Shown: positions 1 to 62,750 of the stretch, piece after piece
Layout: every line of letters starts with the position of its first letter
Position numbering within the stretch: the first letter of the stretch is position 1
Assembly: GCA_008632985.1 (NCBI GenBank)
Contig: QPGO01000163.1
Span: 62,001 to 126,000, forward strand
DNA from: Psammoneis japonica
Taxonomy: Eukaryota
DNA length: 64,000 nucleotides
Reading direction: 5' to 3'
Position numbers and translations under genes: made by a program
The notes under the pieces: generated by a model
The model's input: only the letters and a program-made list of their open reading frames with translations
Database searches by the model: none
What the model was told of the DNA's origin: nothing

Positions 1-1066
1 TTCGTGTGTTTTTTTGTTGAAAAGGAGAGGGCAGTTCACTGCTGTCAAGAGCCAGACATGCACCACAGCTCAAGTTGACCATGGGAGGAATGGCTGCGCA
101 CCAACGGGTGTGCCTTCGATTCCCTTGGAGGTGATTTCAACTCATGTTGTCAGGTGACAAACAAAATCCAAGCCGATGTCATTGGGATTTCTGAAACTTG
201 TTTGGACATGTCCCAACCTCAGATTGCTCAGACATGTCAATCAGTGGTCCAAAACACATTGCACTGCAGTCGTGTTGCCTTCTCAGCATCGTCACCAGTG
301 TTCACAACTCCCTGCAAACCAGGAGGCACAGTCATCACATCCTGAAACTCCATTGCTTCCCGGTTTCACACAAAGAGTGAGGACTCACCAGGCAGATGGT
401 CAACTCAGATGTTCAACGGGAAACAGGGAAAACAGGTGATGTTCATTTCTTGCTGTTGTGTGTGCCGGAACAATTCTTCCACCGCGGGAAAAACTGCCGC
501 TTGTGCCCAACAAGTCAATTTGCTCCAACAGCAAGGTCGCGCACAACCTGAGCCAAGGCGGGCCTTTTGTTCTGATCTTTCCCACATCCTGGAAGCTTTT
601 CTGGACCATCCTCACTGTGAAGTTGTTCTCTTTGGAGATTTTAGTGCAGATTTTTGTCTCATGACACTGACCCATTGGCTTGCATGGCCGCACGTTTCAA
701 CCTGTCTGATGTTGTGTTCCAACAGATGCAAGAAATGGATTTTGCAGCTTGTCTCTGAGGATCTTGTCATCTTGACCACGTGTTGGCGACTCCAGGGGAA
801 CTTAATTTGGTGTTGCAATGTGGTTGCAAACCGTTTGGATGCCGCGTCTCTTCCGATCACCTCGCGTGTTTTGTGGATTTCGATGCGGAAAAGCTTTTTG
901 GCAACTTGCAGCTAGACACTCCAAAACCCACTCAGCAAACTCTCCAAACGAATTCTCCACAACAAGTTGCAACACATTTGGATGCCATTGGTCCCGTGTT
1001 AGAGAGTGGGAATGTTCTTCAGTGTAGCATGTTGCTTCTTGAGGCCACAACCCCCGATCATCTTTT

Positions 1067-1462
1067 GGCGCGTTCCAGCTCTAGGTGGGACCTCGCACTG
1101 CTGAACTGTGACACAATTATTTTTTATCATCCGTCGCATGTTTCGCACGTACATTTCTACGTGTTCCATTGTAAAAAATTGTTCCACACTGCCTGTTTTG
1201 CGAAGCCAAAGGCTTTCTGTTATCTAAATTTATGACAATAAAAATGCGCTGGGTGTGTTCTTTAATGTCTGAAGAACACACCCGGGCATGCTGTAAAGAA
1301 TGTACTTCAAGTGTGGAGGAGGAGATACGTTCGCAAAATTGCCTCTTTTTCTGTTGGCGATAATTCATGTATTCATTGCTTGACAATTTTACTGCAGAGC
1401 TCGCACGTAGAATTCTACGGGCCCAATGTCACAAAAAGTCCCACCCAGGACTGGAACCCGTC
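1067..1462 (+). mobile_element. MITE, GAC-terminus family, subfamily A copy 1 (396 bp)
   Basis: Imperfect ~26-bp TIRs (GGCGCGTTCCAGCTCTAGGTGGGAC / GTCCCACCCAGGACTGGAACCCGTC); 4-bp TSD TTTT at 1063-1066 and 1463-1466; homologous to 2324-2720. Confidence 0.9.
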
Positions 1463-2323
1463 TTTTAGCGGAACGCTTGGATCGTGACATGACAAAGTTT
1501 TGTGTCTCTGCTGCCAAACAATGCCGACAGCATCATGAAGCTGCTTGGTCCCTCAAGTTGGCTGATCTGCGGAAGAAAGTCTTTGTTCTGTCTCGACTGC
1601 TGTCCATGTGCAAAAACCGAGTGCACACTTCATGGCACCGATTGTTCGAGAATGATGCAGAGTGCGAGAGTCTTTCACGCTGCTGTCTGCTCAAGCAGAT
1701 TGTCAATCGGCTCTCTGTCAAGCTCAGTTGGAATGCAAACAAATGGCTTGTGAGAGCCTGATGCACAGGGAAAAAGAAAGAGACAAATGCATCGCAGCAC
1801 CAGATTTGGAGAACACACCGGAAGCCGCCAAAGAGTCCAAGATCCTGCGGAATCTCAGGTGCGCTGAAGAAATGACCTGAGTGTTCTGCAAAACAAATGC
1901 CTTTGCAGACAAAGACAACTCCAGCGCAAGCAACATCCAGGTCCCTGCTGATCCTTCTGAAAATCCTAAAACCTGTGACTCCTGGGTGACAGTTGACTGC
2001 CCGGCTGATGTCACTTCGGCCCTCATTGCACAAAACAAGAAGCACTTTGGCCAAGCTCACAGGACCCTGCTCACAGTGCCTCCCTTGGCACTTGGACTCG
2101 GACATGCAGGAAATGCGGTCATGGCAGAATTGACACTCGATGGTGATTGCGACACCTTTGGTTTGTCTGAAGCCACGGCTTTGCTGTCAACACACCTCCG
2201 TCGCTGCTCTCCTGTCTCTGTTTCAAATTTCCTCACTGCAGAAGACTTGCATGGGAAATTCAAATTGTGGTCTGAACTCACCTCAATGTCTCTCAAGTCT
2301 GGCTTGCATCTCGGACATTGGAA

Positions 2324-2720
2324 GACGCGTTCCAGCTCCAGGTGGGACCTCGCACCACTGCACTGTGACATCAACAGTTTTTTGGATCGCGTCGCATGTC
2401 GCGCGCGCACATTTCTACGTGTCATGTTCTACGAAATTGTTTCATGCTCCCTGTTTTGCAAAGCCAAAGGCTTTCTATTTTCAACATTTGTGAGAACAAA
2501 AATGTGCTGGGTACATTCTTTAATGTCTGAAGAACACACCCGGGCAAACTGTCAATGATGTGCTCCAAGCATGAAGGAGGAGATGCGTTCGTAAAATTGC
2601 CTCTTTTTCTGTTGGCAATCGTTTGTATTTTCATTGCAGCATAAATTTACTACGGAGCTCACACGCAGAATTCTACGGGCCCAATGTCACACGGAGTCCC
2701 ACCCAGGACTGGAACCCGTC
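2324..2720 (+). mobile_element. MITE, GAC-terminus family, subfamily A copy 2 (397 bp)
   Basis: Termini GACGCGTTCCAG...CTGGAACCCGTC; 4-bp TSD GGAA at 2320-2323 and 2721-2724. Confidence 0.92.
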
Positions 2721-2891
2721 GGAAGGCCATGCATGCTGACCATCTCCATTCCAAGGCTTGTGACAAACAATCACAGGAAACGAGATCAACCCATGTTGCA
2801 CGACGTGATGGGGGAGTGAAATCGACATGTTGGGTGTCCCCTGTCATGCGCTCCACACGATTTCACCATGAACGCATCTTGGGGGGTTTGC

Positions 2892-2950
2892 GTGCATGCA
2901 GAGGGAGTGCATGTCACGTGACCCCCCACATGCACTCCCCTTGCATGCAC
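2892..2950. repeat. Inverted repeat, 23-bp arms with 13-nt spacer, possibly the core of a decayed foldback element
   Basis: GTGCATGCAGAGGGAGTGCATGT (2892-2914) versus ACATGCACTCCCCTTGCATGCAC (2928-2950), 2 mismatches. Confidence 0.65.
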
Positions 2951-3359
2951 CTGTCCACGTCATGCCCACGTCATCATGAACACCTCCAAGGTGCTTTGCA
3001 TTGTCACAACTGCGTCATCCTCTCCCACGTCATCCTGACATCATAACGTTTTAATGTTTGTGACCATCAAAACAACTGCTCCACGTCACCAATTGCAGCA
3101 CACCACCTTTTAAACACAGGCTCTTTTTAGAATGCATGCATGGTGGGATTTTTCCCGATGCTGGCAACGACAGAAGCCGACGCCCCTTTTCTACAGCAGG
3201 TTCTACAACAGCCAGTCATTGCGCAACAGTTTCTTTGTTCATTTTAACCACAACAAAGAGCACTGTGGAGCATCATTGCATTTGGCAGAAATGTTGAACT
3301 GCCCAAACTAACAACTGTCATGCCACACATCACTGATGAAACAAGCTGCCGCATTGACC

Positions 3360-4526
3360 TCAGTTGCTTTGCCTCGACTTGCGACCACGCCCTTCCACAG
3401 GCACAGCCTGCTCAAAACATTCACCTGCACAATGCACCATTCCACAACAACCGTGATTTTTTCCATCACACAACCACGCTTTTTTCTTGTCATTCTTTTC
3501 CCACTTGTGATTGCGCCCGGCTTTCTTGCCCACCAAACCTGCAACTTCCCACCAACTCTCACACAGATGGAAATGATCCTGGCTTTTTTGATCATGGCAA
3601 TTGCACTTCAAATTGTTTTTAATTGCAAGTCGTTGCAAGTCATTGCTGCAATCCCAACAAAACATTTTGTTGTTCTCATCTGCCAACGAACAGGTTGCGT
3701 GCACGGACGCAGCACACAAATGACACTTCAACTTGTTTGACACAGTCGTGTTGCAGACCAGGCACTTGGGTTCAACCGGCTTGGATTGGGGCTTTGGTTT
3801 GGCCTTGGGGGCTTTTGCTGATGGTGCTGCTTTAGACTTAGAACGCTTGGTTCCTGTTTTGGCACGCTTGGTGCTCACGTTCAAACCCCTGGTTAAATTT
3901 GGCAGCACACCAGATGCCTGTTGCTGTGCCAGTTGCCTTGCCAAGTCAATCTGATCAGTTGTGTCTGTTTCAACCTTTCCATTTTTGCGCTCTTTTCTGG
4001 CTCTGTCTCCCAGTGCTCGATGATTGTTTTTTGCCACCTGCTGTTCCAATGAAAAACAGGTTGGCACGGTGCCAACCGCTGATGTGTTGCCGCACCCGTC
4101 TTGACTTGCCTTTTTGATTCTTTCACGCTGTTCCATCAACTTGGCCTCATCACCACGTTGCTGCATTCTTGCTGCGTACAAGTTCATGCCCTGCAAAACT
4201 TCATCACTTGGATTCCTCTGATCCATTGCATGAGCATTGGTGCTCCATGTGGCTTTGCCATTTTCGTCACTTGCTCTCATGTTTGCTGCACAAGCACCTT
4301 GCAATCCCACGTCGTTGTGTGCATGGCACCGTTCAATGCAGCCAGTCCATGGCTGTGCTGTCATTCTCTTGGATCTCTTGCCAAAACGTCTCCTGGCTTT
4401 CTTCTGCACTTGTTGTGGTTGCATAACGTCCGCAGAGATCTGCAGGCTGTTGCGTTCCAGTTGCAGCTGCAGAGTGCTTGTTGTGGCAAACATTCTCCTT
4501 TTTTCTGGACAATTTTTGTGCTTCAT
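3360..4526 (-). pseudogene. Transposon-associated ORF with PHD-type zinc finger and a second Cys cluster
   Basis: CLVC...CHLCAASVHATC...FCWDC fits C4HC3 PHD spacing; its C-terminal CDGKNHGCCGMV segment recurs near 46040-46140; TpA-depleted. Confidence 0.55.
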
Positions 4527-4529
4527 GCA

Positions 4530-6050
4530 ATGATGTCTTCAATTGTGTGATGTCACCATCAGACCAAGCCATGGACTTCAACCAATCTGGCACAGGTTGA
4601 TCTGTGGGTTCTTGTCTGGATCCCATCTGAGAGCCCAACAGACAGGATGCACAAGCTTTGGAAGCAACATGTTGTCATTGCAGTGCTGGAGCTTTTTGTT
4701 TGCGATGGACATGCCACTCTTGTCATTCTTGTCTGCACGAAAAAGGACCACAAGATGGCCGTTGATTTCTGCAGGGCAGGTGTTTGTAGATGTTGGCTGG
4801 TGAAAATCCAGAATTTCAACAGCCAAGATGCCATCGGGACAACTCTCAACAGGAAGCTCCTCCTTGGTGAGACCAGCAACCACAACATGTGGAGGCGCCA
4901 TCAAGCCACCAGCTGCGTGAGCAAAGGTGAGCCCCACTCAAAGGCCACCCCACTCAAAGGATTGTTGTCAACCTTGCACCTTGAGTGCACCCCAGCCTCC
5001 TCCTTTGGATCAATGAGTTTCCAGCTCCATTTGCCCTTTTCCTTGGCTCCTTCAAAAGCAAAAACAGCGCAGCATCATTGGTCAACAGCAGAAGATTGGG
5101 GTTGACAGGAAATGTTTTCTCTGCACTCCATGCTTTTTTCACATGATCAACAGTTTCCTTTGTGCCATCACTGAGCTCAGACTTGTCACAATGCTCCCAT
5201 CCTCTCTGGGGTTTGGGCCACTCAATGAAGTGCATGTCAAGGACCACATTTTGATGTGTCAATGCTGCTTGAATTGAGCTCACACTGACAAAGTGCATCT
5301 CCATCTGACTTGCTGTTTTCCTGTCTGTCAACAAGCACTGTGCACCCTTTCTCATGGCATGTGAAATCAATTGAAGTTTGGCAGCATCATTTGAGACTTC
5401 AACACCGCTTTGCTCTTCCATCACTTCTTTTGCTTCAGGAAGGCCAAACATTTTTCCACCAGTGGCTTTAACCTTCTTAATGAAAAGCACTTGAGCAGTG
5501 GCATGGCTTGTCAGGTGGGGCCAACCAACACGTCCTGAGGGTCCCTTCCTTGGCAGATTGCAGACATTTGAGATGTCAGAGCATGGACACCACTTTGACT
5601 GAAAAGCACACTGAATGGCCTTCCTTCTTTCTTTGCTCTCTTTTGGGAGGCAAGCAATGTGCTCGTAGAGCTCTTGCTTTGTCCAACCAATGGATCTGTT
5701 GATGGGGTCAAGGACAGGTGGACCAGAGTTGATGTCGTTTGGTGGTGTTGCAAGCTTTGCCCTTTTTGATCATCTCACTTCAACATTTGGATCCTTTTCT
5801 TTCAAAGCTGTTGCCTTCTTCACACTCTTGGGTGCTCTCATGAAAGACTTTGGCTGCCAAAGAGGGTCCAGGGGCGGATTGTCATGACACTCCTCAGCTT
5901 TTGCTGAATCACATGGCTTTGACAAACATTTCACAGTTGAGAGTTTGCCAACCTGCTTGCATCCCTTGGAACACATCTTCTCAGAAGTCTCCGCCAACAC
6001 ACCTGGTTTTTTGCAAGAGGCTTCTAGATTTAGCCAACTCAGCTTCATTT
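4530..6050 (-). mobile_element. Decayed putative DDE (pogo/Tc1-like) transposase
   Basis: Fragmented frames with LLLTND, TFAHAAGGLMAPPHVVVAG and AWSDGD resemble the DDE_1-type core (AxGxxxPPxII; DG). Family call is by eye only. Confidence 0.4.
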
Positions 6051-6479
6051 TTCAATTCCTTTGCCACAGTTTTAATGTTCTTGACTTGATCAAGTAACTC
6101 TGGCATCTCTCATGCGCCTTGAGCATGTTGTGTGTCAACAACATGTTTCCTGTTTTGTGGTTTCTCACTTCTGCCACCATTGCCTCTTCCATTGGCATGG
6201 AAGCCATCATGTTGAGACTCTCTCATGTTGTGACAAACATCATCATGAAACCACCTTGCGCCTGTCACCCTCATGTTTGAATTCAAACAAGTGGGTTTGA
6301 ATTTTAGTTCTGAATCATTGAAGCACTTTGCGCCAAAGAATGAAACAAAAAGCATCAACAATTGCAAGAACGAGACCAACCGCCAAGTGACAACAGAGAG
6401 ATGCACACAGCACCTCCTTTTTTAAAACACATTTCTGATGTGGTGTCAAGGCACCACAACAGGTCATGACACGTGCAGT

Positions 6480-9190
6480 GCACAGTTAATTTGGTGTCTT
6501 GCAAGTGGCGGCAATCAATTGGCCATTGTCACAGGTGAGAAGATTGTTTGAAGATCAATTGCAAAAGCAAAAACTCTTCTGTTTGCGCTTCCCCGCACAC
6601 AAAAATGTGGCCAATTTGTCAATGTGGTCAATTTTCTGCATGACTGGCTGGGACTGGAACTTGTCCGGTGTGCTTTGTGATGCCTGTGGTGGAGTTTCCC
6701 TTTCAAAGGAAGTGCGCTGGGCACTCTGGTTGGGTGTCACAGAAAACTGCACAGACAATCCCACCTGAGTCTGGGAGGCCCATCATTCACAAGGACGTGT
6801 GGGCTCTCACCAAGGATGACTTGAATGCTGACACAATGAGCAACCGTTTGGAACTTCTAGATGCTGCACTTTCTGTCAAACTGGGTCAGGATGCAACCAA
6901 GAATGATGAGTCCCTGCCAAATCCACCAGAAGATCTCTTCACCAATGATGAAAAGAATGTGGGGCCATTTGACTCTGACTCATCACACCCCAAGGTGGAT
7001 GAACATGCACCCAAGGAGATGGATGAACATCCCATGGCAGAGGTGTTGTTGCCTGGGGGTGGTGAACTTAAACATGCAAAGGTCACAAGCCCTGAAATGC
7101 AGTGTGGACAGAGTGGAGTTGCCAGACAGATCCACTGATGCTTTCACGGCCAACGCAATTGCTGAGAATGTCTTCTCCCAAGCAGATGATGGAGGCAGGA
7201 CGCACCAGATTGTGAAGGAGATTGTGGGTCACCAAAGTGACGCACGCATCATTGGCAAGGACGATGGGTGTTGCACCACCCGCACAAGCACTTGAAGACC
7301 CAGATGGACCACTGTCAGATGGGACCTGCAGATCAAATGGAAGGGCAGAACATCCAACTGGATGCCTCTCTCTGAAGTCAAGGAATCGTTCCGGACACAA
7401 GTGGCTGAGCATGCAGTTGCCAACAAGATTGCAAGAGAGACAGCATTCAACTGGTGGGTGCAGGACGTCCTGCATTGCTGTTCCAGGATGGTCATGAAAG
7501 TCAAGACTGGGTGCTGGAAGCACATGTGCAAATTTGGGATCAAGCTCCCAAAGACTGTGTCACAGGCACTTGAGATTGACCAAAAGACAGGACTGGACCT
7601 TTGGATGGAGGCAATCAAGAATGAGATGAAGAGTGTCATGCCTGCATTTGAATTCTCTGAGGATGATGAGATGCCATTTGGGTGCAAACAGGTCCAGTGT
7701 CATGTGGTGTTTGACATCAAGACATGCCTCACCCGGAAGGCCCGTTGTGTTGCAGGGGATCATCCGACAGAACCACCCAAGGAGTTGAATTGCTCCAGTG
7801 CAGTCTCTCATGACAGTGTCAGGACAGCCTCAACTGTCGCCACACTTGATGATCTTGACATCATGTGCACAGACACACAAAACACTTGCCTTGATGCAAA
7901 GACCAAGGAATGGTGTTGTGCTGCTGCTGGCCTGGAATTTGGGAAGCAAAACAAGAACAGACCCATCAAGATTGTTGGGGCACTTCATGGTCTCAAGAGA
8001 TCTGGAACTGCACTCTGCCACCACATGGCTGCCACATTTCATGAAGCAGGGCTCCACTCTAGCAAAGGGGGTCCCAATGTTTGGATGTGCAAGGCAGTGA
8101 AGCCAGGTGGCTTCTCAAGTGTTGGGAACATGCACTTGCATGTGGACTCCATGGCTTCCCGCTGTGTCCTCAAGGAAGGAAGTGTCATGGAGCCAGAAGA
8201 GTGCCTTGGCGCACAGATCTGAAAGCACCAATTGCCTGAGTCAGATGGCAAGATGCATTGTCCTCTGATTTGCACGTCAAAAGGGCAATTGCTGACATTG
8301 AATTTGAGCTCTGCCAGGCTGGCAGAAGCCTCAAGTCCAAGGCTTCAACCCCCTTGAGATCTGGGCACAGACCGGAACTTGACAGTTCCCTGGGAACTGG
8401 GTGCCTGGAGGGCAAGCCACTGCCAGGGACTCATTGGGGCATTGTGCTGGATGGTGGAACAGGGGTGCATTGACATCATTGTGGCCGTTTCACTCATGTC
8501 ACCACATCCAGCCGCCCCGAGGGTGGGTCATTTGGACAAAGTGCTGCACACATTTGCACATTTGAAAGCACATGCAAAGTCACTCTGTGATGGTGTTTGA
8601 TGACGCTGAGCCTGCTTTTGATCAGTCTTGTTTTCAAAAGTGTGACTGGTCTGAGTGTCATCCTGAAGCAGCCAAAGAGCTGTTCCAATGGACACTCCCA
8701 AAGCATGGGGGATTCGGGTCACTGCCACTTGTTTTGTCAATGCGAGTCATGCTTGCTGTTGTGTGACTTGAAGATCTCACACTGGAACAACAATTTTCAT
8801 GCAATGGGCATCAATCTTGTGGTGCTCTAAATGGCAGAACACTGCAGAGTCATCAACTTTTGGGTTAGAATTTGTTGCGATGAAAACTGTGGTCAAGCAG
8901 ATCAAGGCCTTGCATCACAAGCTTTGGATGCTTGGGATCCCAGTGGAGGGGGTGCCGACCAATGTCTTTTGTGATGACAAGGCCATGTTCAAGAATTTGA
9001 CTTGACCAGAGTCAATGCTTGAGAAGAAACACAGTGCCATTGCCTGTCACCGGAGCTGCAAAGGTGCAAGCAGCGGGTGTTGTGTCACCTGGGATGATGG
9101 ATGCACAAATCCAGTGGATGTGCTCACCAAGCTCATGCCCGGACAAAAGCTGTGATTGGCTCATTCGTCACATGCTGTGGTGAACAGATT
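6480..9190 (+). mobile_element. Decayed Ty1/copia (CoDi-like) pol: integrase C-terminus, RT and RNase H
   Basis: CHVVFDIKTCLTRKARCVAG, ALHGLKRSG, CQGLIGALCW and WCSKWQNTAESSTFGLEFVAMK...NVFCDD match copia RT/RNase H motifs, with Tyr replaced by Cys/His. No LTR identified. Confidence 0.9.
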
Positions 9191-10720
9191 CATCCAAAAT
9201 GGACAAACCAGGATTTTCTCCTCCAAAATGGAGGGGTTTTGCCCACCCCACATGAAGAAGCAATTCCCTGGAATGGGGCGGCAATGCAGAAGGTGCAGGT
9301 TGTGTCGAGCTGACCCGACTGGGACCACTGATGCCAGCTCATGGGGACTGAGCAATTCCAGCCATGCCATCGTCAAATGAGTGCCAGGACCATTTGGCAA
9401 AGAACACCACTGTTGCTCAAACATTGGGTGGTGCAGAGTGACCCTCACATTTTTTTAGAATCCTGTTGATTGCTGCACAGCACTTTTCTGTCGCATCTTG
9501 TCAATTTCTTAGCGGCTGTGGCATGATTTGCTCATTTCTTCAAACTTGCCCTGATTTTCTAGACTCAATCCAATGTTGTTGTAAATTGATGCCGTGCTGA
9601 GATGATTTGGGCCCAAGATGACTTCACAAACTGCAAGACACTTGCAACGTTCCACCAACGCAGCATTGCATTCTCCAATTTCCTTGCAAATTGTCCCAAC
9701 ATTGCAGGCCGTTCAAGCAATCTTGAGTTGCTCTCCATTTGTGGAATCACTCCATCCCAAATTTCCTCAGATTCGTGAGGCTCTGTTTTAGAGCACCAGT
9801 CAGGTTGCTGTCTTTTCAGAAGAGTGCAAACTTCAAAGTGTGCCGTGCACCGCAAATTGAACTTTGAGTTTTGGCTCCCTCTCTGTTCTGCTTTTTTTCC
9901 TGCTTTGATCATCCCCCACAGTCTGCAAGGAGAGTGCAAATGATTGTCATCTTTGTCCACAAGCTTGTCCTCAAACACCTGCACAAGCACTGTTGCATGC
10001 ATCTCATTGTTGCATTTGCACACATTCGGAATGGTTTTTTTTGCGCATCCACGACAACGGGGTCATTCACATCAAGTGGTTTTTGGCATGCCACTGCATT
10101 TTTGGGGTGAAGCACGGACTCGTTGGAGGTGCAGTGATTGACCTTGTGCTCCATGAAGCCACATCACAAAGCAATGACTTTTGCATTTTTTTTTCACACA
10201 CAGAAAACATTGGCATGGTGGGATTGCGGATCTTCAAAAAAAGAGCAGTCACCCACTCCAAAAAGTGGCGCTGTCTTGAGAGCGACACTTTGTTCCACAG
10301 GCTGCACTGGTGTTGCTCCAGTGCATGCAGTGCCGGCTGGCTTGACAGCAGCAAAATTGAAAGTGGCTTGGTGTTCCTCAGCACATCATGTGAAAGTGTC
10401 AGGGTTGAATTTTCTCCCACGAACACACCACGTTCTGCTCCCATCAGCCCACGTCCTGCACAGATGCAAGAGGGGTGCATTGACACCATCAGAGTGCACA
10501 ACATTGCAATGTCTGCACACATGATAAAAACATGTTGCCACATTGTAAAATCTTCTTATCTGCGTACGATGGTCTTTGTTGTGTGTTCAATTGTTGGTCT
10601 CATGCCATTCTTCATGTTGGAACACGGATCGTTTTAAATTTTATGCTGCACCTTTTTCACAACAACAAACGACATTTGTCAACAAGGCAAACATTGCAAT
10701 TGCATGCAACACCATTTTCA

Positions 10721-31852: not shown

Positions 31853-31859
31853 GACATTC

Positions 31860-52537: not shown

Positions 52538-52538
52538 C

Positions 52539-52573
<35 letters not shown>
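52538..52573. repeat. (CAA)12 microsatellite
   Basis: Read directly. Confidence 0.95.
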
Positions 52574-52574
<1 letters not shown>

Positions 52575-52714
52575 CCATTGTGCTTGCAAACTCCCTTGAC
52601 AAAAACAATTCCTGCACTGTCACCATTGAATGACTCACATTGTCACACTCACTGCTTGATGCAGTCATCTCTCCCACTGTCATTTTGCTTGTGTGGTTTT
52701 TCTGAGAGCGTGCT

Positions 52715-52931
52715 CCTGTGGTGCCGAGATGTGCCATGGGTGATGGGTGCATGATGACGGACATTGTTTGTGTGTTGTGTGTTTGTTGGTGTCATTTCAC
52801 AGATGAGCGTGCCTGGCCCTGACCCTGATCCTGGCGCAACCTGTGGTGCCAAGACGTGCCATGGGTGATGGGTGCATGATGACGGACATTGTTTGTGTGT
52901 TGCACATTTGTTGGTCATTTCACAGATGAGC
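52715..52931. repeat. Direct repeat of ~93 bp (52715-52808 and 52840-52931)
   Basis: CCTGTGGTGCC...GGGTGATGGGTGCATGATGACGGACATTGTTTGTGTGTTG...CATTTCACAGATGAGC occurs twice. Confidence 0.9.
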
Positions 52932-54756
52932 ATGAACAAAACACCACCACAATTTCAAAGTTGAAATTGCCCAAACAGGATGACTCATGTTTCAGCAGAT
53001 TTTGCTGAAACATGCATTGTGCAGAAACATGAGTCCCATTTGCATGTTTCAGCAAATGGCGGTGTTTCAATCAAGCATGGCTCAAAGCACGAATCAGGCA
53101 ACATCAATTTAACAGCACAAAAGGGTCTTTTTAAGATGTTTCATGCAGACTGTGGTGCCATGCAATGCATGTTGTCAGTTGCGAGCAAGAAGTCTGTGCA
53201 TCACACATGCACGTGATCACAAACATGACATCATGTGTCATGCTTTGAGAGAGGAATCCATCCTCTGGCTGTTCCGGGTTTCCAAGGAGATTGTTCACGC
53301 ACAACACTGCACTTGGCTGGAGGTGGCATGACGCATGCCTGCATGCATGTCATCGGGGTGGTGATTTGCGTGCACACCGGCAGATGACAGAGTTTGAATT
53401 TAATCCATGCATTGAGCTTTGAATGATTCTTCAAATTTGGAGATGCATTTGTTCCAGTTTCTCTGAATCTTTTGTCGAGACACCACGTGTTTTTGCCGTG
53501 CTTTGAGTTTTTTTGTCTTGGTGCTGTGGTGAAATCATCAAACAATGTGATTCAAAAGGGAGATGACTGCAACGTGAACAGCCATGCTGCAGCATCAAAA
53601 GGAGTGTCTCTCGCACCAGTTGATTGTTGGAACAAAAGATGTCAGGAGCACCGGCATGCTCTCTGCATGAGCTCAGCTCTGTTTTCTGTCACTTTCTTCT
53701 GGATGTGTTTTTGACTGGTTGCTCCTTGATGAATGATTTTGACTGGTTGCGCATTTCAGACGATGGCACAAATTCAGCTCCATTTGTGCTGACACTTTCT
53801 CCAAAACCAATGATTTGAGCAGCTGCATCTTCTTGACGATGACATGAGAATTTGGCTCTGTTTGTGCTGTCACTTTCTGCTCAACAAATGATTTTGACTG
53901 TTGGCATCTTTTGGAGCATCCTCTGCTGCTTTGCTGCTGATGGAATTGTGATTGACAAACTTGTGCCATGTCACCGGCGCGACTTTCCGAGCTGCAGTTT
54001 TTTTTTAGAACTTGCAGGGCAGCATGCGTGCCTCTGTCTTCAACAACTCCCAACCTGCAACACAAGCTGCAGGACTGGCATCCTTTTCTTCTTCTTCTTG
54101 GATTTTCGAAATGGCACCCTCACTTTCTCCACCGCGATGAATCCCCTGCAACTGCACTGCATCCTGTGTCCTTTCTTCTTCAAACTCCAGCGCCAGCTGG
54201 ATTGCGCCACGGTCGTCCAATCTTTCTCCACCAACTGAGTCATCCTGGAAGTGATTGCAGCAGTGGACATTGTGAGCAACAAATGACTCTAGATCAAACA
54301 ACACTTGATTCGACAAACAACGGGGCAGCTTGGTGTCTTGGTGTTCATTGTTGATTGTCCGTGGTGGCGGTGCGCGTGCGTGTTGAGAAAGAGCGAAGTC
54401 TGTGCGTCACACACGCGTGATCCAGCAAAATCGCCACGATGTCTGTCCGTGCCCCACCTGGTCCGGAGGAATGCACCATACGGTACAGTACGTAGGGCCC
54501 TACATACGGTACATACCGCCCGGTATGACGTGTTCGAATCATCAAAAGACTCTTCATCCATCATCATCATCGGCCATCGGTGCGGTGTGCGGCCGCCGAT
54601 GGACCGCTGTTTTTGGGTTTGCTTGCACAACACATACCCTATCATTGCGTTGAATGATTCTTCTCTCGGGGTTGCTCGTCTGTTTTTCCATTATATAGTT
54701 TTCTTGTTTTGTGCATTGCATATTATCAACCAGTTGAACATTATATTGTTACAATC

Positions 54757-56319
54757 ATGACGACAATGATGAGATTTTCTGGACGTCAATACTTGTCTCG
54801 CTTTTTGGTGAGGAGGCGTTGTTTGCCCATGACACAATCACAACGGAGCACCACCGCTGTAGTGTCGTTATCCTGTGCAACAGCAGCAGCAGCAGCAGTT
54901 GCATTCAAGCCGCTGACGTGGTCGTCGTGTGAACAACAAACTACAGAGGATTTGTACAAGGAATGGGATGATTTTTATGCCAAATCTGTCAAGCCGGGAG
55001 AAGAAGATGATGAAGACGAGGAGGAGGATGAAGATGAGGACGAGGAGGAGGAGAATGAAGCAGACGATGAGGAGAACGAAGCAGATGAGACGGGAGAGCA
55101 AGTCACTGAGATGCCTACCGAAGTCAAAAAGGACATGATTGAAGAAGAAGAAGAAGAAGCAGCACCTGAATCTAAGGCAGCTGAGGGAAAGATCGAGAGG
55201 GACTTGGAAGCGGAAGCTGCTGAGCAGAAGAGCGTTACCAACGAATCGCACGTTACTGCAGAGGAGGTGGTAGAACAGACAAAAGAGGCCAGCAACAAAG
55301 TGCCGCTTGAGGAGGAACCGGTGGCTAATGAGGGAGATGAGGCAGCACCTTATGTTGCAACCAAGATGAAAGAACCGACTGCAGCAGCAGCTGAATCTAT
55401 GGATGACGACGACGACAAGTACGAAAACTTACCAGATGAGGATGAGCCCACGTCGTGCTCCATTTGTCGTATTAATCGCAAGGGGCCTTGCCGATTTTTG
55501 TGGCGCAAGTTTGAAGCCTGCATGAAGGACAACATGACCAACAACAAGCAAAACACAAACGAAAGCAGTGTTTCTTCTCCAAATCCAGCCATTGCGGAAC
55601 GGTGTGACAGGTACATGATGCCTTGGATCACGTGCTTTCAGGAATACCGCAATTTCTATACACTTGCCACCAATGAGTTGTATCGAAAAGACTTTCTCGA
55701 TGAAGCAGAAGCGGCTGTTCCAAAAGAACACTGCCGATCCTTGGAGGATCCCGATATTGATTGGACGGCATTTCTCCAATTTCTACAAGATGAAGAAATG
55801 ACGATCACCGACATGGCCATGGCCAAGACAGCCATTGACGTTGGACCGAATCAATCTGAACGGCTGGACGTTTTGCGCCATTCCATGAGGAAGGCAGGCT
55901 TGGAATTTCAGGATAAGGTCCTTGTGATCGATGAGGACAATCCGCAATTCTTGTGTGACTGTCAAGCACGCATATCGCTCAAGGAACCTAATGCAAGCCA
56001 CGAACTTCCCATTGAAGTTGCCTATGCGCGAGATCAAGACGGAAACATTTTGGGTTTTGACATGTTTACCAGTGCCAAGGAAGCAAAAGGCAATAAGGAG
56101 CAAGAGTCGGGCGTTTTGAATTTTCACATTCGCTTTGGATCGACGCTGGCTATACAGATTTGTTCCATTTACCAAGAGGTGGATCCAAAGGACGGGACGG
56201 TGGTGGAGAGGCGCTTGTATCAGAGTGATTTGATTCCAGTCACCCAACCAGCACGAAAGGCGGGACTCTTTAAGGACGAAAAGCCTATTTCCTTTCCTAC
56301 GAATATTATGAAGAAGTAG
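54757..56319 (+). CDS. GCK / twin-CX9C domain protein, probably mitochondrial, with acidic linker (520 aa)
   Basis: Arg-rich N-terminal presequence plus Ala stretch; CSIC...GPCRFLWRKFEAC (CX9C) and CDRYMMPWITC (CX9C). Confidence 0.75.
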   Translation: MTTMMRFSGRQYLSRFLVRRRCLPMTQSQRSTTAVVSLSCATAAAAAVAFKPLTWSSCEQQTTEDLYKEWDDFYAKSVKPGEEDDEDEEEDEDEDEEEENEADDEENEADETGEQVTEMPTEVKKDMIEEEEEEAAPESKAAEGKIERDLEAEAAEQKSVTNESHVTAEEVVEQTKEASNKVPLEEEPVANEGDEAAPYVATKMKEPTAAAAESMDDDDDKYENLPDEDEPTSCSICRINRKGPCRFLWRKFEACMKDNMTNNKQNTNESSVSSPNPAIAERCDRYMMPWITCFQEYRNFYTLATNELYRKDFLDEAEAAVPKEHCRSLEDPDIDWTAFLQFLQDEEMTITDMAMAKTAIDVGPNQSERLDVLRHSMRKAGLEFQDKVLVIDEDNPQFLCDCQARISLKEPNASHELPIEVAYARDQDGNILGFDMFTSAKEAKGNKEQESGVLNFHIRFGSTLAIQICSIYQEVDPKDGTVVERRLYQSDLIPVTQPARKAGLFKDEKPISFPTNIMKK

Positions 56320-57114
56320 GGCTAACTATTGTTGGAAGCAACCGTGCTTACTAGAGATAAGGTAGTCACCCTTATAGTAACAGTTCAGCGATTCTAAATC
56401 CTATCAAAGTTAAGCATTGCCAGACTGATATATATCTACTCCTTTGCCATTCCTTGTTTTCTTTTTCATACGAAACATGCAAGAAATATGGAGACGTCGC
56501 TCGCGCCTCGACGACTCGTCGTTCCTTTTTTGAAACACAAGTGGTGGCCCCAATACATAAAGGGAAACCCATTTCCTTCCCTACGAATAGGAAGAAGTAG
56601 GGCTAACTACTCTTGGAAAGCAACCGTGCTTACTCTAGAGAGATAGGTTAGTCACGCGTATAGTATTTCAGCGTTTCAAAATACTATCAACGTTAATCTT
56701 GCCAGACTGATGCATATTCACTTCTTTCCCACTTCTCGACGACTCGTCGTTCCTTTTTTAACCCCAAGCCGTGCAGAGGCGTTTGTATCAGAGTGATTTG
56801 ATTCCAGACTCCCGACCAGTGCGAGAGGCGGGACTCTTCAAGGACGAAAAGCCCATTTCGTTGCCGACGAATATGAACAAGTAGGGCTTAAAACTACTTT
56901 TGGAAAGCAACCGCGCTGTCTAGAGTGAGAGGGTTGTCATGCGTATAATAACATTTCAGCGATTCGAAATACTACCGTATCAAAGTTAAACATTGCCAGA
57001 CTGATATATATCTAGGTACTCCTTTCCCGTTCCTTTTCCTCTTTTTCACACGAACCATGCAAGTAATGTAAGAGTCGTTGCTCACGCCTCAACGACTCGT
57101 CGTTCCTTTTTTTT
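56206..57114 (+). repeat. Tandem triplication of the last codons and 3' UTR of the GCK gene
   Basis: Units ~56206-56531, 56565-56759 and 56776-57114 share AAGTAGGGCT, GCAACCG, TGCCAGACTGAT and CGACTCGTCGTTCCTTTTT. Confidence 0.9.
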
Positions 57115-57167
57115 TCCAAGGTGCCATCTCTGCAAGAACACATAGGATTGACGCAACTGACTTGCCT

Positions 57168-58932
57168 CTACATGCAGTAGCTGCACCTACCATTTACAAT
57201 ACCAACACCATCCACATCATTACACTGGTTCTCGGGTACTGTAAAATGAGAACACCCAAGACAGCAAGCCTCGCAATTGCAGCTATTGGGTCCAATGGTG
57301 GCATTGACCAATCCAACACAAGCCTTTTCACCACTACACGACAAATCCTTGATTGTTGATCCCATCTGATGTTTACAACAGTTCTTTGCATTACAGCTCT
57401 TGGCGTGGATGGTGGTATTGATGAGTTTGGCACACGAAAAGTGTCGATTGCAAGATCTCGGCCCAATCATGGAATCCTTTTGAAAGCGACACGAATTATC
57501 CCCATTGCAGCTACGGACACCAATGGTCGTACCGTCGAGACGCATACAAGACTCTCGGAAATTGCAAGAACCATTGTTTACCACGGAATTGACTTGATGA
57601 ACACAAGAACGACTGCGGAGATCTAAAATATATACAAAAGCAGCAAAACAAAAAAGACACACAAGGCTTGAGCATTGAAATCTATATTCTCGGGGGCAGA
57701 GTGAAGCTCATGCTACACTTACGTCGTTTACCACCGCAACTCTTGTTTTTGATCAACGTATTGGTAATGTTGGTACAAGCATTAAAACCATTGCAAGAGG
57801 CATTGTAAATCATGGAATTGGTAGCATTGGCACATGACAGAGCCAAGTTGCAACTTGCATCTTGTACAGTTGTATTGATGAGACCGGAACAAGAGTCCCA
57901 TGCATTGCAGCTATCATCACGAACGTTGCTATCCGACATGCCAGGACACGCATGGACATAGTTGCAGCTGTCGTCCTTGACTGTGCTACTTTCCATATCC
58001 GAACAAGCTCCAACGTAATTACAGGAATCGTTTCCGATCGTAATGTCTTTTCCATTTAAACAAGATCGTTCCACATTGCAGCTATTATGTCCAATCTCAC
58101 TCAAACAAAATTCGCATCGGATCGTGGTCATGCCATTGCATTGATTCTTGGGTACAGTCACGTGTGAACAAAACGCACAGCATCCATCGCAGTTGCAACT
58201 GTTGGCCTCAATGGTTGTATCCGCAATGGCTTGGCAGGCATATTTTCCATTACACGATCCAATTTGAACCTCTGAATTGATTTGAGATTCACAACTATAT
58301 TCTTCATTGCAGCTGTTGTTTTTGACAAATCCAGTGTCGATATGGGAACAAGCGTTTTCTGCATTGCACGAACCACTTTTCACCTTGGTTGCCACGACAT
58401 TGTCACAAGCAAAATACGCGTTACAGCTATCGTCACCCACGGTTGTATTGGAAAGAAACGAACAAGCCCGAAAGTCGTTGCACGAGCCACGGCGAACCTT
58501 GGATTCCTCGCTGAGTTCACACGCACTGTCGTGATTGCATGCTTCCTTGTTAATCGTGGACCTTACCAAACGTGAACACGCTCCCCATCCATTACAGGCA
58601 TGGTCTTTGACGGTACTACCGGAAATGGCTCGACAAGCATATCGTCCGTTGCAGCTACCGTCTCCAATGGCGGCATGTAAGAACCGAGAACAGTCATCCC
58701 ATCTCGTGCAGGCGCATGCATAATTACCATTACACGATTTGTTGCCCACGGTAGCCTTTTTGGCATCCAGACACGCGGTCGAAACGTTGCAACTGTCCAT
58801 TCCTGCCACAATCGTATTGTTGTTGTCATTATTATCTATGAGCTCCTGACTCCAACTCAATTGGAGGAGCAACCACAAGGGCAACAGCACAATGTAGTAG
58901 TAGCGGCGTAGTGAGATACGACGACAAGCCAT
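57168..58932 (-). CDS. Secreted Cys-rich repeat protein (~17-aa SCN-x3-AC repeats); probable intron 57623-57722
   Basis: Signal peptide, >20 repeats, normal TpA; a GTAAGT donor and TTTTAG acceptor join ORFs 57682 and 57168 in frame. Confidence 0.8.
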
Positions 58933-59289
58933 TGTTGTTGCATGTAAAAAAGTGTCACTGTCTCTTTGTTTTTCTAGTGCTTCTTCTTGGTTGATATGAT
59001 TGATGTGGGCTCTTCACTCTCTTCATCCGCGAATCAATCAATCATCAAAGATCAAAAGACAACAACAACAATAAGTGTTTGTGATTTGTGATCGCGTCAC
59101 GTGTGTCACGTCAGAGTTCTCGTTTTGGCCTTCCAGTGTAGTCGCGCGTCAATTGCGCGATCATGTCTCGGCGTGTTGTGCGACGAGTGCGTCGTGGTGC
59201 AAATTCATAAAATGTGATGATCCTACGGTGTACGATTTTGCGTTGTGTGTGAAATTTTTTAACACCTTCTAGCTAGCTAGCCAGAAAAG

Positions 59290-61850
59290 TGTGAGACATG
59301 TGTGATTCTGCAACATGATGTGTGCAATTACAGCACGTTTCAAAAACTCCTCACAGCAGAGAAAAACACACACAAAGCGCTCGCAAAAAAGGAACTTTTG
59401 TTTGCCCGCACGTTTTTGTCAGCATCACTCATCAACAATTTTGTGGTGCTCCTCCTGGCACGGCCGTCCCACTGAGACTGCAAAAACTTGCTGGTGCTGC
59501 ATGCAGGATGCTGATGCAGGTTGCTGATGTGCCACACATTGCTGTGTCTTTGCTCTCTTGACTCATGTCCGCACACAACTGCGCGCAAGCACAAAAGAAG
59601 CCAAGGGCACTTTTTGAGCGTGCGCAAGCAAAAAAAAAAAAGACCGCACCCCCTCTTTGTGTGTGTGGAAATGATGCTTGCAATTTTTGTGGCTTGCACC
59701 TCATTTTTGGGGGGCTCTTTTGGGGCCAGGCCTTTTTGCCCATTCAAAAGTGCTTTCAAAACTGGTGTGTGTGTGTGCATCTCTGGGCAAGTTTTTTTTT
59801 TCAATTGCACCCATGATTTGATTTGTGCGTGAAGGGCTCCTCTGTGCTTGCAAAAAAGCACAGCCAAGCAAAGCAGCGCTGTCAAGACACCATGTGACTG
59901 GCTCACAGGAATTTAAAAAAAGAGTGGCCCCATTGACAACAAGCTGCTGCAGGGGATGAGATTGATCCATTGCTTTTGAAGTTGATGCTCCTTTTCAAGG
60001 TGCAACGGCTGTTGCTTTGGAACCAGAATGAGGCCTGCAAATCATCATGTGTCCTGTGTCTGCAAACTTGTCTTGCCCAAAACTGTGCAGATCTTGCCTC
60101 ACCAGACAGCTGGACAGAGCAACCATTGGTGCTGGCAGCACAGAGTGAGATGATGTTGTTTTTCATTTTGCTTGCAATCACTCACACCTCCAATGCTGGA
60201 CTCTGCAGGTTGTCTGCAGTGTCTCCTGGGTCAAATGTCAACACAGCACCATCATGTCCACTGTCAACTGGAGAGAGATCATGCATGACCTGTGTGTCCC
60301 CAAGGCACACAAGCTGAAATTGGTCACTCAAAAAAGTTTGCCACAATGAGAAAAAACAGAAAGTTTGAACAACTCAATCTCTGTCATCATGCCCCCAAGG
60401 CATGTGTTCAGAGAGCAGGTTCTGCCCCCCAAGGGTGCAGTGTGGCACTCAACTGAGCATGGTCACATTCTTCATTCAGGATCAACCCAGGGGGCTGCAG
60501 CACATGTGCATCATTTCCTCCTCTCATGAACCTGGGACCTCAGTGCAATGCCAACAGCACCCATTTCAAAACATTTCACACACACCAGACCCCAAAAACA
60601 TTGCACATTTTTTTTTTTAACAGAGAAATGCAGAAACCAAGTGAAAGGTTTTTGACAATGGGCAAAAGCACCCAAAAGAAGATGCTTTGTGTGTTTTCAG
60701 CACCCATTTTTTGTGTGGCCCCACCAACAAAATTTCTAAAGAGACTCTTCAGGTGGCTGTTGCTTGTGCTTGGCATTTCAAATTGACGCTGCTGTGCAGC
60801 CATTCCCCCCATTCTTGTCAACTTGAGCTGTGGTGCGTGTCTGGCTTTTCTTGACAGCGGTGCACTGCTCTCTCCTTTTCAACAAAAAAACAAATGTCGT
60901 CAAATCAATGTGAGGACTTTGAACTGCTGCACCCCAGTGTGTCTGTCTTGGCTCCATTTTTCAGCACAGTCATCATCAACAAATGTGCTGCAGCTCCAGA
61001 CTGTCATTGCTGGGTGGAAAGTGCTGCTTTGTTTGACAAGTTCACTGAGGCACCGAGGCCCCAAAATGCTGTCTTGATGAGAAAGCAGCATTGTCTCCAT
61101 TGGAAAGAGAAGAACTCAAAACACAAGAAAAATGTGTGGCACTGGCGTGGGCAGTGCAATGGACATTGGGAAAAGACCCAATGTCTGGAAAAACTTAAAT
61201 CAACGCAGGCCAGTTGGCACAGAACAGATGCCAAATTGCTGAGTTGAGCAATGCTTGGCACTGCAGGCAGTGATGCAGAAATGCAGCTCATTTGGTTGCA
61301 CATGTCATCAACCCAAAAACCATCAGTTGACTGATGTTCTTTTTTTTTCTTGCCTTTTTTTTTTCATCACACCATGGCAGCTGCAACTTGTTGGGCACAC
61401 TGAAAATCACTTGCGATGCAGGCTGTCCATTCCTGAGACTCCCACGCCAATGGCAAGAGGCGCCACATGATTTTGAGCCATCAGAGGCCAAGCATCTTTT
61501 CCTGATGGTTGGCTGCACTGATGTTGCCCATGCCAATGACCCACACAAGAGATGCTCTGCTGCTGCCACTGTGGGATGTGCACATGCACTTGCTGGTGCA
61601 GCGAGCTCTTCTCACCTTTGCAACATGGACGCACAGAGGTTCACAGCTGCAAGTTGGACAGAGACCAAATTTCTTCAAGTTTTTGCTGGGTCGAGGAATG
61701 TTCTCTGCCTGCAATCTGTGCTGGAGGAGTTGGGCATTCCCCACCAGCCAGGGCCAAATCCCTTTCTCATTGACAGCTCATCTGCAATTAAGATGACAAA
61801 TCAATTGGTCCCAGCAGAGGGATTGCGGCACATTGACAGGGATTCCAAAC
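59290..61850 (+). mobile_element. TpA-depleted block ending in a Ty1/copia RNase H relic
   Basis: GCTDVAHAND...RCS and TETKF...LQSVLEELG...LIDSSSAIKM...LRHID at ~61500-61840; the upstream part is not classifiable. Confidence 0.65.
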
Positions 61851-62750
61851 CTTTGAAGCTCACAGCAAAATGCTTTTTTTGCTCTGCTGCAGTTTTCATT
61901 GCAACAAATTCTGACCCGCCAAGAAGTTGAGGACTGCAAGGGACTTCTTTTTCTCATTTCTGTGAATTCTTTTGTCGCAAGAAATGTGCTGCCAGCTCTT
62001 TTCACCTTTGCAACATGGACGCACAGAGGTTCACAGCTGCAAGTTGGACAGAGAACAAATTTCTTGAAGTTTTTGCTGGGTCGAAGAATGTTCTCTACCT
62101 GCAATCTGCGCTGGAGGAATTGGGTGTTCCCCAGCCAGGGCCAAATCCCTTTCTGATTGACAGCTCATCTGCAATTAAGATGACAAATCAATTGGTCCCA
62201 GCAGAGGGATTGCGGCACATTGACAGGGATTCCAAACCTTTGAAGCTCACAGCAAAATGCTTTTTTTGCTCTGCTGCAGTTTTCATTGCAACAAATTCTG
62301 ACCCGCCAAGAAGTTGAGGACTGCAAGGGACTTCTTTTTCTCATTTCTGTGAATTCTTTTGTCGCAAGCAATGTGCTGCCAGCTCTTTTCACCTTTGCAA
62401 CATGGACGCACAGAGGTTCACAGCTGCAAGTTGGACAGAGAACAAATTTCTTGAAGTTTTTGCTGGGTCGAAGAATGTTCTCTACCTGCAATCTGCGCTG
62501 GAGGAATTGGGTGTTCCCCAGCCAGGGCCAAATCCCTTTCTGATTGACAGCTCATCTGCAATTAAGATGACAAATCAATTGGTCCCAGCAGAGGGATTGC
62601 GGCACATTGACAGGGATTCCAAACCTTTGAAGCTCACAGCAAAATGCTTTTTTTGCTCTGCTGCAGTTTTCATTGCAACAAATTCTGACCCGCCAAGAAG
62701 TTGAGGACTGCAAGGGACTTCTTTTTCTCATTTCTGTGAATTCTTTTGTC
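61604..62750. repeat. Three tandem copies of a 387-bp unit (first is 390 bp) containing the copia RNase H end
   Basis: Identical ORFs at 62015 and 62402 (period 387); units 2 and 3 are essentially identical. Confidence 0.95.

Follow-up and report, generated by a model that had tools for sequence, protein, structure and literature searches.

We analysed a 64-kb stretch of contig QPGO01000163.1 from Psammoneis japonica (positions 62,001 to 126,000; the whole stretch is called the window here, and all coordinates refer to it), in which four long blocks of repeated DNA are nearly devoid of the dinucleotide TA and rich in TG and CA. Sequence comparisons point to a past hypermutation of TpA to TpG or CpA. 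The process behind this footprint is probably the one described in the rhizarian alga Bigelowiella natans (Mettrop et al., bioRxiv 2026, 10.64898/2026.01.13.699255), working on DNA already resident in the chromosome. Delimited by their TA composition, the blocks lie at 1–24,900, 31,100–47,040, 49,070–54,478 and 59,290–62,750 and make up 78% of the window. They probably consist of old transposable element (TE) DNA, comprising two copia families, a short element with terminal inverted repeats (TIRs) that resembles a miniature inverted-repeat transposable element (MITE), a 10.7-kb repeat and others. An earlier note on this DNA, made by reading the sequence alone, had claimed a near-absence of TA and a richness in TG and CA across repeat blocks with these same borders, and the counts bear this out.

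The window as a whole contains 880 TA steps (observed/expected, o/e, 0.20), with TG and CA in excess (o/e 1.53 and 1.56). Calculated per kb, the TA o/e is 0.02–0.31 and mostly ≤0.2 in the four blocks, block 1 by itself covering this range, and 0.42–0.81 in the gene islands that separate them. The pooled blocks (49,671 bp) hold 6.1 TA per kb (o/e 0.09) and the pooled islands (13,294 bp) 42.3 per kb (o/e 0.59); the first kb of the window has 3 TA, while the open reading frame (ORF) of a kinase has 67 over 1,773 bp. A 250-bp map combined with single TA positions places the block borders at ~24,893, 47,044, 49,063–49,090, 54,479, 59,278–59,329 and 62,752. TA is the only A-containing dinucleotide depleted in the blocks, where the o/e of AA is 1.28 compared with 1.10 in the islands. 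CpG is lowered in parallel, to 28.1 per kb (o/e 0.49) from 52.1 per kb (o/e 0.96) in the islands, and in block 3 its o/e falls to 0.17–0.45. In pooled counts, the 55.0 per kb by which TG plus CA is higher in the blocks approximately equals the TA deficit (36.1 per kb) and the CpG deficit (23.9 per kb) taken together. The sliding-window comparison of TpA and CpG that the earlier note had proposed thus gives a sharp TA contrast between blocks and islands. The exceptions within block 1 are TA-normal islets formed by copies of the MITE-like element (TA o/e 0.62, 0.40 and 0.34). The GC content is 46–48% and the genes are intron-poor.

Three independent tests agree on the polarity of the change, which runs from TA to TG or CA. 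Two fragments of copia reverse transcriptase (RT) were aligned by hidden Markov model with 150 database relatives, and seven alignment columns with at least 60% Tyr were considered. At the five such columns covered by the first fragment (22,235–22,741, minus strand) the residues are His, Cys, His, His and Cys. At six columns the second fragment, which belongs to a different family (7,458–8,159, plus strand), has Cys, Ala, Cys, Cys, Cys and His, that is, Cys or His at 5 of 6, Ala at one and Tyr at none. Together, Cys or His occupies 10 of the 11 columns and Tyr none of them (a first pass had given 6 of 6); among the 150 relatives, by comparison, Tyr fills 579 of 742 cells and Cys or His 78. Tyr codons (TAY) become Cys codons when changed to TGY and His codons when changed to CAY. 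The motif contrasts between paralogous copies from which the earlier note had read this polarity are also present in the sequence: KYDK at 23,416 faces KCDK at 20,614 and 43,524, SYRG at 15,129 faces SCRG at 13,968 and 36,879, and LYK faces LCK, while LVHDVK, RDCEH, KALCG, NTCL and ALHG all occur. The pair GTAAGTTAAG and GCAAGTCAAG was confirmed, as was TCTCTACC versus TCTCTGCC within an array of 387-bp units.

The second test is provided by the two copies of the 10.7-kb repeat, A (10,487–21,191, plus strand) and B (33,391–44,107, plus strand), which stand in direct orientation and are 87–93% identical. A near-identical stretch at ~12,900–14,500 was set aside, leaving 8,006 aligned dinucleotide columns. 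The top difference is CA in one copy against TG in the other, with 155 such doublets; the next doublet type, AC against GT, occurs 14 times. The same comparison gave TA in both copies at 29 sites, TA against TG at 25 and against CA at 29, CG in both at 185, and CG against TG and CA at 79 and 84. A CA/TG doublet is formed when an ancestral TA or CG has been hit in both copies in opposite senses, and a binomial model was fitted on this logic. CpG loss is then ~0.31 per copy, which predicts ~18 of the 155 doublets. The other ~137 would derive from ancestral TA, lost with a probability of ~0.91 per copy from ~357 sites, or 44.6 per kb, matching the TA density of the gene islands. An origin of the doublets from CG only was rejected, as it would require an impossible CpG density. 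A third copy, comprising only the 3' end of the element (23,126–23,985, plus strand), served for three-way polarisation: at 37 sites split between TG and CA it retains CG at 5 and TA at 2, which fits survivals of 0.69 and 0.09, respectively, if nearly all of the split sites were once TA. The model and the three-copy set therefore indicate that the TA content of the element was normal when A and B separated, and that TA was lost independently in each copy.

Related elements elsewhere provide the third test. From 438 confirmed copia loci in metagenomes, we took the best 80, ranked by their match to unmutated queries (a five-sequence alignment); these loci (423 kb) serve as a composition control and not as a census of mutated copies. 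Their TA o/e is 0.36–1.15, and loci in which CpG has decayed to 0.22–0.24 still have TA at 0.48–0.66.

Both strands are hit, as the earlier note had held, and they are hit equally and without tracts. TG and CA stand at 105.2 and 99.1 per kb in the blocks, and over the two RT fragments six Tyr became Cys and four became His. Along copy A, TG and CA outcomes fall into 79 runs, compared with 77.6 ± 6.1 in permutations, which rules out a kataegis-like clustering in strand tracts. The sequence around the step matters greatly. Relative to the gene islands, the survival of NTAN tetranucleotides rises from 0.006 for ATAT through ATAC (0.024), ATAG (0.036), GTAC (0.084), ATAA (0.12), CTAC (0.17), GTAA (0.21), CTAG (0.28) and CTAA (0.40) to 0.51 for TTAA. 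A multiplicative per-strand model, using the base 3' of the mutated A, accounts for these values with an R2 of 0.97 against the islands and 0.96 against the 80 metagenome loci. The survival factor is 0.08 when that base is T, 0.28 for C, 0.4–0.5 for G and 0.73–0.79 for A, so that the preference is 5'-TAT > TAC > TAG > TAA. The A/B pair gives the same order, with 48 doublets, 8 singly changed sites and none retained at ATAT, ATAC, ATAG and GTAC, and 45 doublets, 32 single changes and 21 retained sites at CTAA, CTAC, GTAA and TTAA. Read on the other strand, the rule describes a mutated T in 5'-ATA > GTA > CTA > TTA, and an attacked A and an attacked T look alike in sequence.

The hazards per copy estimated from A and B are ~2.4 per TA (1.2 per base), 0.37 per CpG and ~0.0066 per site for other transitions (105 in 8,006 columns over two copies), and the rate at TA is therefore ~6.5 times that of CpG decay and ~180 times that of other transitions. 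Decay of CpG to TpG or CpA, of the 5-methylcytosine type, is thus a second and slower process in the same blocks that does not explain the loss of TA. The two nevertheless advance together, and with CpG decay as a clock TA loss grows with the age of the element: the four copies of the 395-bp TIR element have TA o/e values of 0.62, 0.40, 0.34 and 0.15 with CpG o/e values of 0.95, 0.95, 0.92 and 0.57, and over 47 one-kb windows of the blocks the two ratios are correlated (Spearman rho 0.69, p 1e-7). TA loss is also sharply confined to the bodies of the elements, with genes a few bases away being TA-normal. The evidence is a 57-bp TE terminus present at 46,981–47,037 and at 54,423–54,479 (both plus strand) and followed in each place by unrelated DNA. 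The first TA lies 7 bp beyond the first copy and at the junction itself (54,479) in the second, a distance of 0 bp, and TA is dense thereafter. Beyond the shared terminus, a weak tblastn similarity (36 residues, 56% identity) links 46,981–47,087 with 54,423–54,532, running into the TA-normal DNA upstream of two ORFs of 616 and 553 aa; little of it is seen in the DNA alignment.

Full-text searches of the literature returned a single description of such a process, in B. natans, and none for diatoms, so the earlier note's view that it was undescribed no longer holds. The main text of the 2026 preprint on B. natans reports mutation-accumulation lines in which 231 of 302 nuclear mutations lay in integrated nucleocytoplasmic large DNA virus (NCLDV) and virophage DNA; 230 of these 231 were A→G or T→C, and the GC-biased ones all fell at TpA, at ~6e-7 per site per generation and in 11 of 15 lines. 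According to the same text, the B. natans genome has 124 clusters of windows poor in TpA and rich in CpA and TpG, RT and DDE domains are over-represented in coding sequences with little TpA, the data are Illumina data, and the process works on DNA that is resident in the chromosome. As its agent the authors suggest an ADAT2-like adenine deaminase, citing DNA editing by amphioxus ADAT2 and a preference of ADAR for edited adenines preceded by U (Mettrop et al., bioRxiv 2026, 10.64898/2026.01.13.699255). The main text contains no mention of diatoms, flanking context or trinucleotides. In a diatom DNA-methyltransferase paper (PMC9998398), the passages that concern repeat-induced point mutation (RIP) bring it up only in connection with DNMT4.

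The window shares with the B. natans process, as the main text of the preprint presents it, changes exclusively of TpA to TpG or CpA on both strands, mobile or foreign DNA lying beside normal host genes, a rate orders of magnitude above background, and a lasting loss of TpA with gain of CpA and TpG. Changes that are almost all A→G or T→C at TpA are indicated here by the depletion of TA alone, the 155 doublets, the 10 of 11 Tyr columns and 54 of 68 sites at which one copy of the A/B pair alone keeps TA and its partner has TG or CA. Confinement to mobile DNA is indicated by an o/e of 0.09 against 0.59 with a switch within 0–7 bp, a leucine-rich repeat (LRR) exon being the exception, and a high rate by the ~180-fold excess over other transitions inferred from the divergence of A and B. 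Several differences stand beside these likenesses. Unlike the rhizarian B. natans, the host here is probably a diatom, the nearest named relatives being diatom proteins, from Cyclotella cryptica for the domain DUF7640 and from Fistulifera solaris for copia; the window does not come from the sequenced B. natans, given that 29–32% identity is the best that its ORFs for the kinase and DUF7640 reach with any named proteome. Several TE classes are close to saturation in the window (o/e 0.09), whereas the main text of the preprint gives 0.45 for the NCLDV insert of B. natans. Parallel decay of CpG and a measured 3'-flank rule are features of the window and not of that text, and activity in real time is a feature of B. 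natans, whereas the footprint here is known from sequence alone. On our reading, a second and distant lineage has the same process, which has here reached saturation in TEs; beyond the main text of the preprint, the window contributes this saturation, the rule on flanking bases, the parallel CpG decay and the base-sharp limits.

Other known systems share parts of the pattern. Like fungal RIP, the process is a dinucleotide-specific, mutagenic inactivation of repeated or mobile chromosomal DNA that affects both strands and leaves a diagnostic dinucleotide index. RIP, however, changes C:G to T:A, converts CpA to TpA and enriches TA, whereas here TA is lost and CA and TG are gained, the opposite direction; RIP also makes stop codons, whereas here TAA and TAG are removed and ORFs are inflated. 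Deamination of 5-methyl-CpG likewise yields TG and CA and has itself left its mark in the blocks (CpG o/e 0.49; 163 sites with CG in one of the copies A and B and TG or CA in the other), but it does not remove TA, and in the same DNA CpG is lost at 0.31 per copy against 0.91 for TA. ADAR hyper-editing and APOBEC3 in animals also produce clusters of deaminase-type transitions in mobile elements. They act on single-stranded or RNA intermediates and are one-sided, whereas here no strand asymmetry was found and a TIR element is hit. ADAR, moreover, has a mild 5' preference and prefers G on the 3' side, whereas the change described here requires T on the 5' side and favours T on the 3' side.

The mechanism that we propose begins when TE DNA becomes resident in the chromosome. 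It would then undergo strand-symmetric, context-specific A:T→G:C transitions at TpA only, the same host process as that seen in real time on the integrated viral DNA of B. natans, until about nine in ten of its TA steps have become TG or CA while host genes a few bases away keep a normal TA content. The reaction would be enzymatic, with adenine deaminated to hypoxanthine on transiently unpaired DNA and read as G at replication, and its targeting would follow whatever marks silenced, CpG-methylated TE chromatin. Elements would be inactivated by Tyr→Cys or His and other missense changes and by loss of TA-bearing signals such as TATA boxes and AATAAA. A defence function, and the chemistries that the earlier note had offered (adenine deamination, polymerase eta, oxidised thymine), are conjectural. 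As the agent, an adenine deaminase is a tentative suggestion. The A34 substrate of the tRNA deaminase ADAT2/ADAT3, of the TadA family, is an adenine that follows U33 and hence a UpA step, and engineered TadA deaminates adenine in DNA. The natural A34 substrates are, however, followed by G, C or A and not by the T preferred here, and fungal mRNA editing favours UAG. A thymine-based chemistry or a bias of a repair polymerase is possible.

What marks DNA for the process can be approached through repeats that differ in their TA content. The earlier note had described the hypermutation as restricted to repeats. The repeat blocks are indeed hit, yet the evidence on repetition as a trigger in the sense of RIP is divided: high-copy elements are hit, the MITE-like copies only partly, and a local repeat at 56,203–57,112 is TA-dense. 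This last consists of three ~285-bp copies with ~80% identity, which lie a short way downstream of the 553-aa ORF, where TA is denser than anywhere else in the window (14–24 TA per 250 bp; per-kb o/e 0.62–0.81), and repetition alone can therefore occur without TA loss. The converse case is the LRR exon at 30,128–31,105 (minus strand), an intact LRR_6 exon (188-bit Pfam match) of a gene encoding LRR, ankyrin and kinase domains. It is built of 84-bp tandem units, and at one variable position four of its seven units have Tyr, Cys, His and Cys. In simulations from its own amino-acid sequence with the codon usage of its neighbours, 45.1 ± 5.3 TA were expected (minimum 29 in 500 trials), whereas the exon has 10, a 4.5-fold depletion at synonymous and junction sites with a CpG o/e of 0.95; seven other ORFs have 0.68–1.02 of their simulated counts. 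The exon adjoins a TE block, so that a chromatin state spreading into it is no less likely than recognition of the repeat. On the whole, residence in a TE or in silent chromatin, combined with time, fits the observations better than does repetition acting as a trigger. A further claim of the earlier note, that several classes of element are affected, holds for copia and for the TIR (DNA-type) element, which favours a host process at the DNA level over errors of reverse transcription. The note's long interspersed nuclear elements (LINEs) and kinase pseudogene were not reproduced: LINE candidates at 346–912 and 1,881–2,555 had no PDB sequence match at E ≤ 1 and no Pfam match, and tblastn with the kinase of the window found no second copy within it.

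Several other explanations have to be weighed against a process on resident DNA. Editing could precede or accompany integration, with RNA, cDNA or excised DNA hypermutated in an ADAR- or APOBEC-like manner so that copies land TA-poor. The independent mutation of A and B from a TA-normal ancestor would be seen if a TA-rich master element kept yielding edited copies. A single-stranded intermediate should, however, give one-sided changes, and the two strands are in fact equal and randomly interleaved, in the runs along copy A as in the Cys and His outcomes; the TIR element, of a cut-and-paste type, is affected in a graded manner, TA loss tracks CpG decay, and the LRR exon shows an intact host sequence depleted. 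ADAR is, to our knowledge, known from animals only. These points, together with the action of the B. natans process on resident chromosomal DNA according to the preprint's main text, make editing before integration improbable. Alternatively, the changes could arise in situ without a dedicated enzyme, through repair errors of the polymerase eta type at WA motifs or through a mispairing modified base (oxidised thymine or 5-hydroxymethyluracil) concentrated in heterochromatin. Errors of polymerase eta favour A in WA and TA motifs, thymine chemistry fits the flank rule equally well since the context is symmetric, and the process co-locates with CpG-methylated DNA. Polymerase eta also hits AA, however, and makes many transversions, whereas here the mutated A seems to need a preceding T without exception and AA shows no depletion, TG or CA is the partner at 54 of the 68 sites with TA in a single copy, and change at ~91% of sites at such an excess over other transitions exceeds the repair biases that we know to be reported. 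We regard this explanation as unlikely.

Two further alternatives can be largely set aside. Modified TpA in TE DNA might have led the basecaller or polisher of a long-read assembly to write TG or CA, since nanopore assemblies are known to contain motif-specific miscalls where bases are modified. Logan contigs of sequencing run X1, at an even depth of ~51–65, were assembled independently and repeat 5.7 kb of the TA-poor sequence (4,575–10,256), with 0–4 differences per contig of 0.9–1.5 kb, and contigs from paralogous copies carry the same deterministic alternation of TG and CA at one site, for example at 6,690/6,691, 11,072/11,073 and 11,586/11,587 (among 40 of 993 differing places). Moreover, six of the 150 database relatives of the RT are discrete outliers, with 0–1.4% Tyr, 8.2–14.4% Cys plus His and a Y/(Y+C+H) ratio of ≤0.14 against a median of 0.44. 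These copia RT ORFs (P0144, P0159, P0201, P0219, P0220 and P0259) were drawn from ENA, JGI/IMG and Logan records and share only 33–47% identity with one another and with the window; other public assemblies therefore show this Tyr→Cys/His signature too. With the B. natans result coming from Illumina data, as the preprint states, an artefact is very improbable, even though X1 and two further runs share their sample with the window. The final alternative invokes no special process and supposes that the elements are intrinsically TA-poor, through foreign origin or codon habit, or that CpG decay has combined with GC-biased gene conversion. CpG is depleted in the same blocks and its decay yields TG and CA, and TA is mildly under-represented in most genomes. 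Against this, the best 80 of the 438 related copia loci keep their TA even at a CpG o/e of 0.22, conserved Tyr codons are replaced, CpG decay covers ~18 of 155 doublets and 23.9 of the 55.0 per kb gained by TG plus CA, and gene conversion has neither TpA specificity nor a flank rule. We give this alternative almost no credence.

A number of observations weigh against hypermutation of resident DNA by a dedicated activity and have to be set beside the evidence for it. The LRR exon, which is depleted, and the repeat at 56.2–57.1 kb, which is not, give conflicting hints on the role of repetition. The 29 sites with TA in both A and B compare with ~3 predicted by the homogeneous model, so some TA sites are either refractory or newly made, and where one copy alone keeps TA, its partner is AA, TT, GA or GG at 14 of the 68 sites. 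The end of the depletion 0–7 bp from a TE terminus, with untouched flanks, is also what editing before integration would leave. The three runs used in the sequencing check (X1–X3) all derive from one sample that is probably the source of the assembly, and they do not constitute an independent platform. Lastly, although the obligatory 5' T matches the U33–A34 step, the preferred 3' T fits no adenosine deaminase preference known to us, and the idea of a deaminase is thus weakly grounded.

The consequences for coding capacity are marked. TAA and TAG occur at 2.6 and 1.5 per kb per strand in the blocks compared with 9.3 and 8.0 in the islands, and with both nearly absent only TGA stops reading frames, so that all six frames fill with long spurious ORFs. 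Counting ORFs of 90 aa or more, the blocks have 4.8 per kb (238 in 49.7 kb) and the gene islands 2.7 per kb. Missense outcomes include Tyr→Cys or His, Ile (ATA)→Met or Thr and Leu (TTA)→Ser, and TATA-like and AATAAA-like signals would presumably be erased. TE DNA freed of TA in this way escapes Pfam-based annotation, and such regions are bound to be mis-annotated as genes without a known function. A further effect is a rise in the GC content of TE DNA, contrary to its usual AT bias, which matters to models of genome composition.

More broadly, stramenopile and rhizarian algae may perhaps share an old, dedicated DNA-editing defence that makes A:T→G:C changes at TpA on both strands with an intrinsic preference TAT > TAC > TAG > TAA, acts on silenced TE or viral chromatin with base-pair-sharp limits, and saturates over evolutionary time, a proposal that we put forward with reserve. 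If true, it would amount to an A-to-G 'base editor' of natural origin that works on double-stranded DNA, mirrors fungal RIP and can be traced in public data through Tyr-free transposon ORFs. So far the process has one description, from one rhizarian alga, and the main text of that 2026 preprint comes without an established enzyme or targeting rule. A second, distantly related host at saturation would show that it is not peculiar to one strain and would open the way to comparative genomics, seeking genes common to hosts with the footprint and absent from hosts without it, and the flank rule offers a biochemical fingerprint for candidate enzymes.

The class of the elements was assigned by HMMER against 1.84 billion proteins because Pfam gave no TE domain in the TA-poor blocks. 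Pfam was run on the window's full set of 279 stop-to-stop ORFs with a minimum length of 90 aa at E ≤ 0.01 (part of them only at E ≤ 0.001, and 11 up to E 10), and none of the 238 from the blocks contained a transposon or kinase domain. The ORF at 21,854–22,741 (minus strand), which includes the first RT fragment, has 1885 HMMER matches, the top one with an E value of 6.5e-47 and 53% identity. RVT_2 is present in all five of the matches that were scanned, one of them a copia-type protein of F. solaris, so that the window RT has significant similarity to RVT_2-bearing polyproteins (Ty1/copia) while the mutated ORFs themselves go unrecognised by Pfam. The least mutated copy of the MITE-like 395-bp family lies at 1,069–1,462 (plus strand; TA o/e 0.62), followed by those at 2,326–2,720 (plus; 0.40) and 24,181–24,564 (minus; 0.34), and the most mutated lies at 21,660–22,045 (plus; 0.15), in the order of the CpG ratios given above. 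Its TIRs, of ~23 nt, are imperfect and were judged by eye from an alignment; a repeat tool gave a subterminal pair only.

In copy A, the 10.7-kb element contains a 436-aa ORF (11,411–12,721) that has no Pfam family and no usable match in the ESM Atlas, and an internal tandem duplication of 1.16 kb (12,875–14,034 and 14,030–15,195). The separate 3'-end fragment at 23,126–23,985 suggests that 5'-truncated copies exist. Summed contig depth over copy A is 2,800–6,100, compared with ~55–65 for single-copy DNA (45–100x), which hints at tens of copies and is not itself a copy number. Between A (12,900–14,500) and B (35,800–36,945), ~1.5 kb are ~99.4% identical, well above the identity elsewhere, and this stretch is the one tandemly duplicated in A, a pattern suggestive of a recent gene conversion or of partial re-copying from one element to another. 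In block 4, the array at 61,596–62,751 comprises three 387-bp units that are 97% identical; a TA/TG site and a TG/CA doublet are among the positions at which they differ.

The TA-normal islands carry a CAP-domain ORF, the LRR_6-ankyrin-kinase gene (minus strand), two DUF7640 paralogues and three ORFs that belong to no family. The island at 25,000–30,200, which served as a control, contains the CAP-domain ORF (plus strand) and the kinase and ankyrin ORFs (minus strand) and has a TA o/e of 0.55–0.64. At 47,040–49,070 (plus strand; TA o/e 0.49) lies the 616-aa ORF, a protein of no family whose homologues, up to 73% identical, are found in ENA contigs of 0.8–1.4 Mb. The island at 62,750–64,000 (minus strand; TA o/e 0.62) is occupied by an open-ended ORF of 388 aa, and that at 54,480–59,290 by the 553-aa ORF, the TA-rich local repeat and the DUF7640 paralogues. 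These last are two neighbouring ORFs at 57,171–59,013 (minus strand) that form tandem paralogues with repeats ~30–34% identical, and their best named relative comes from C. cryptica.

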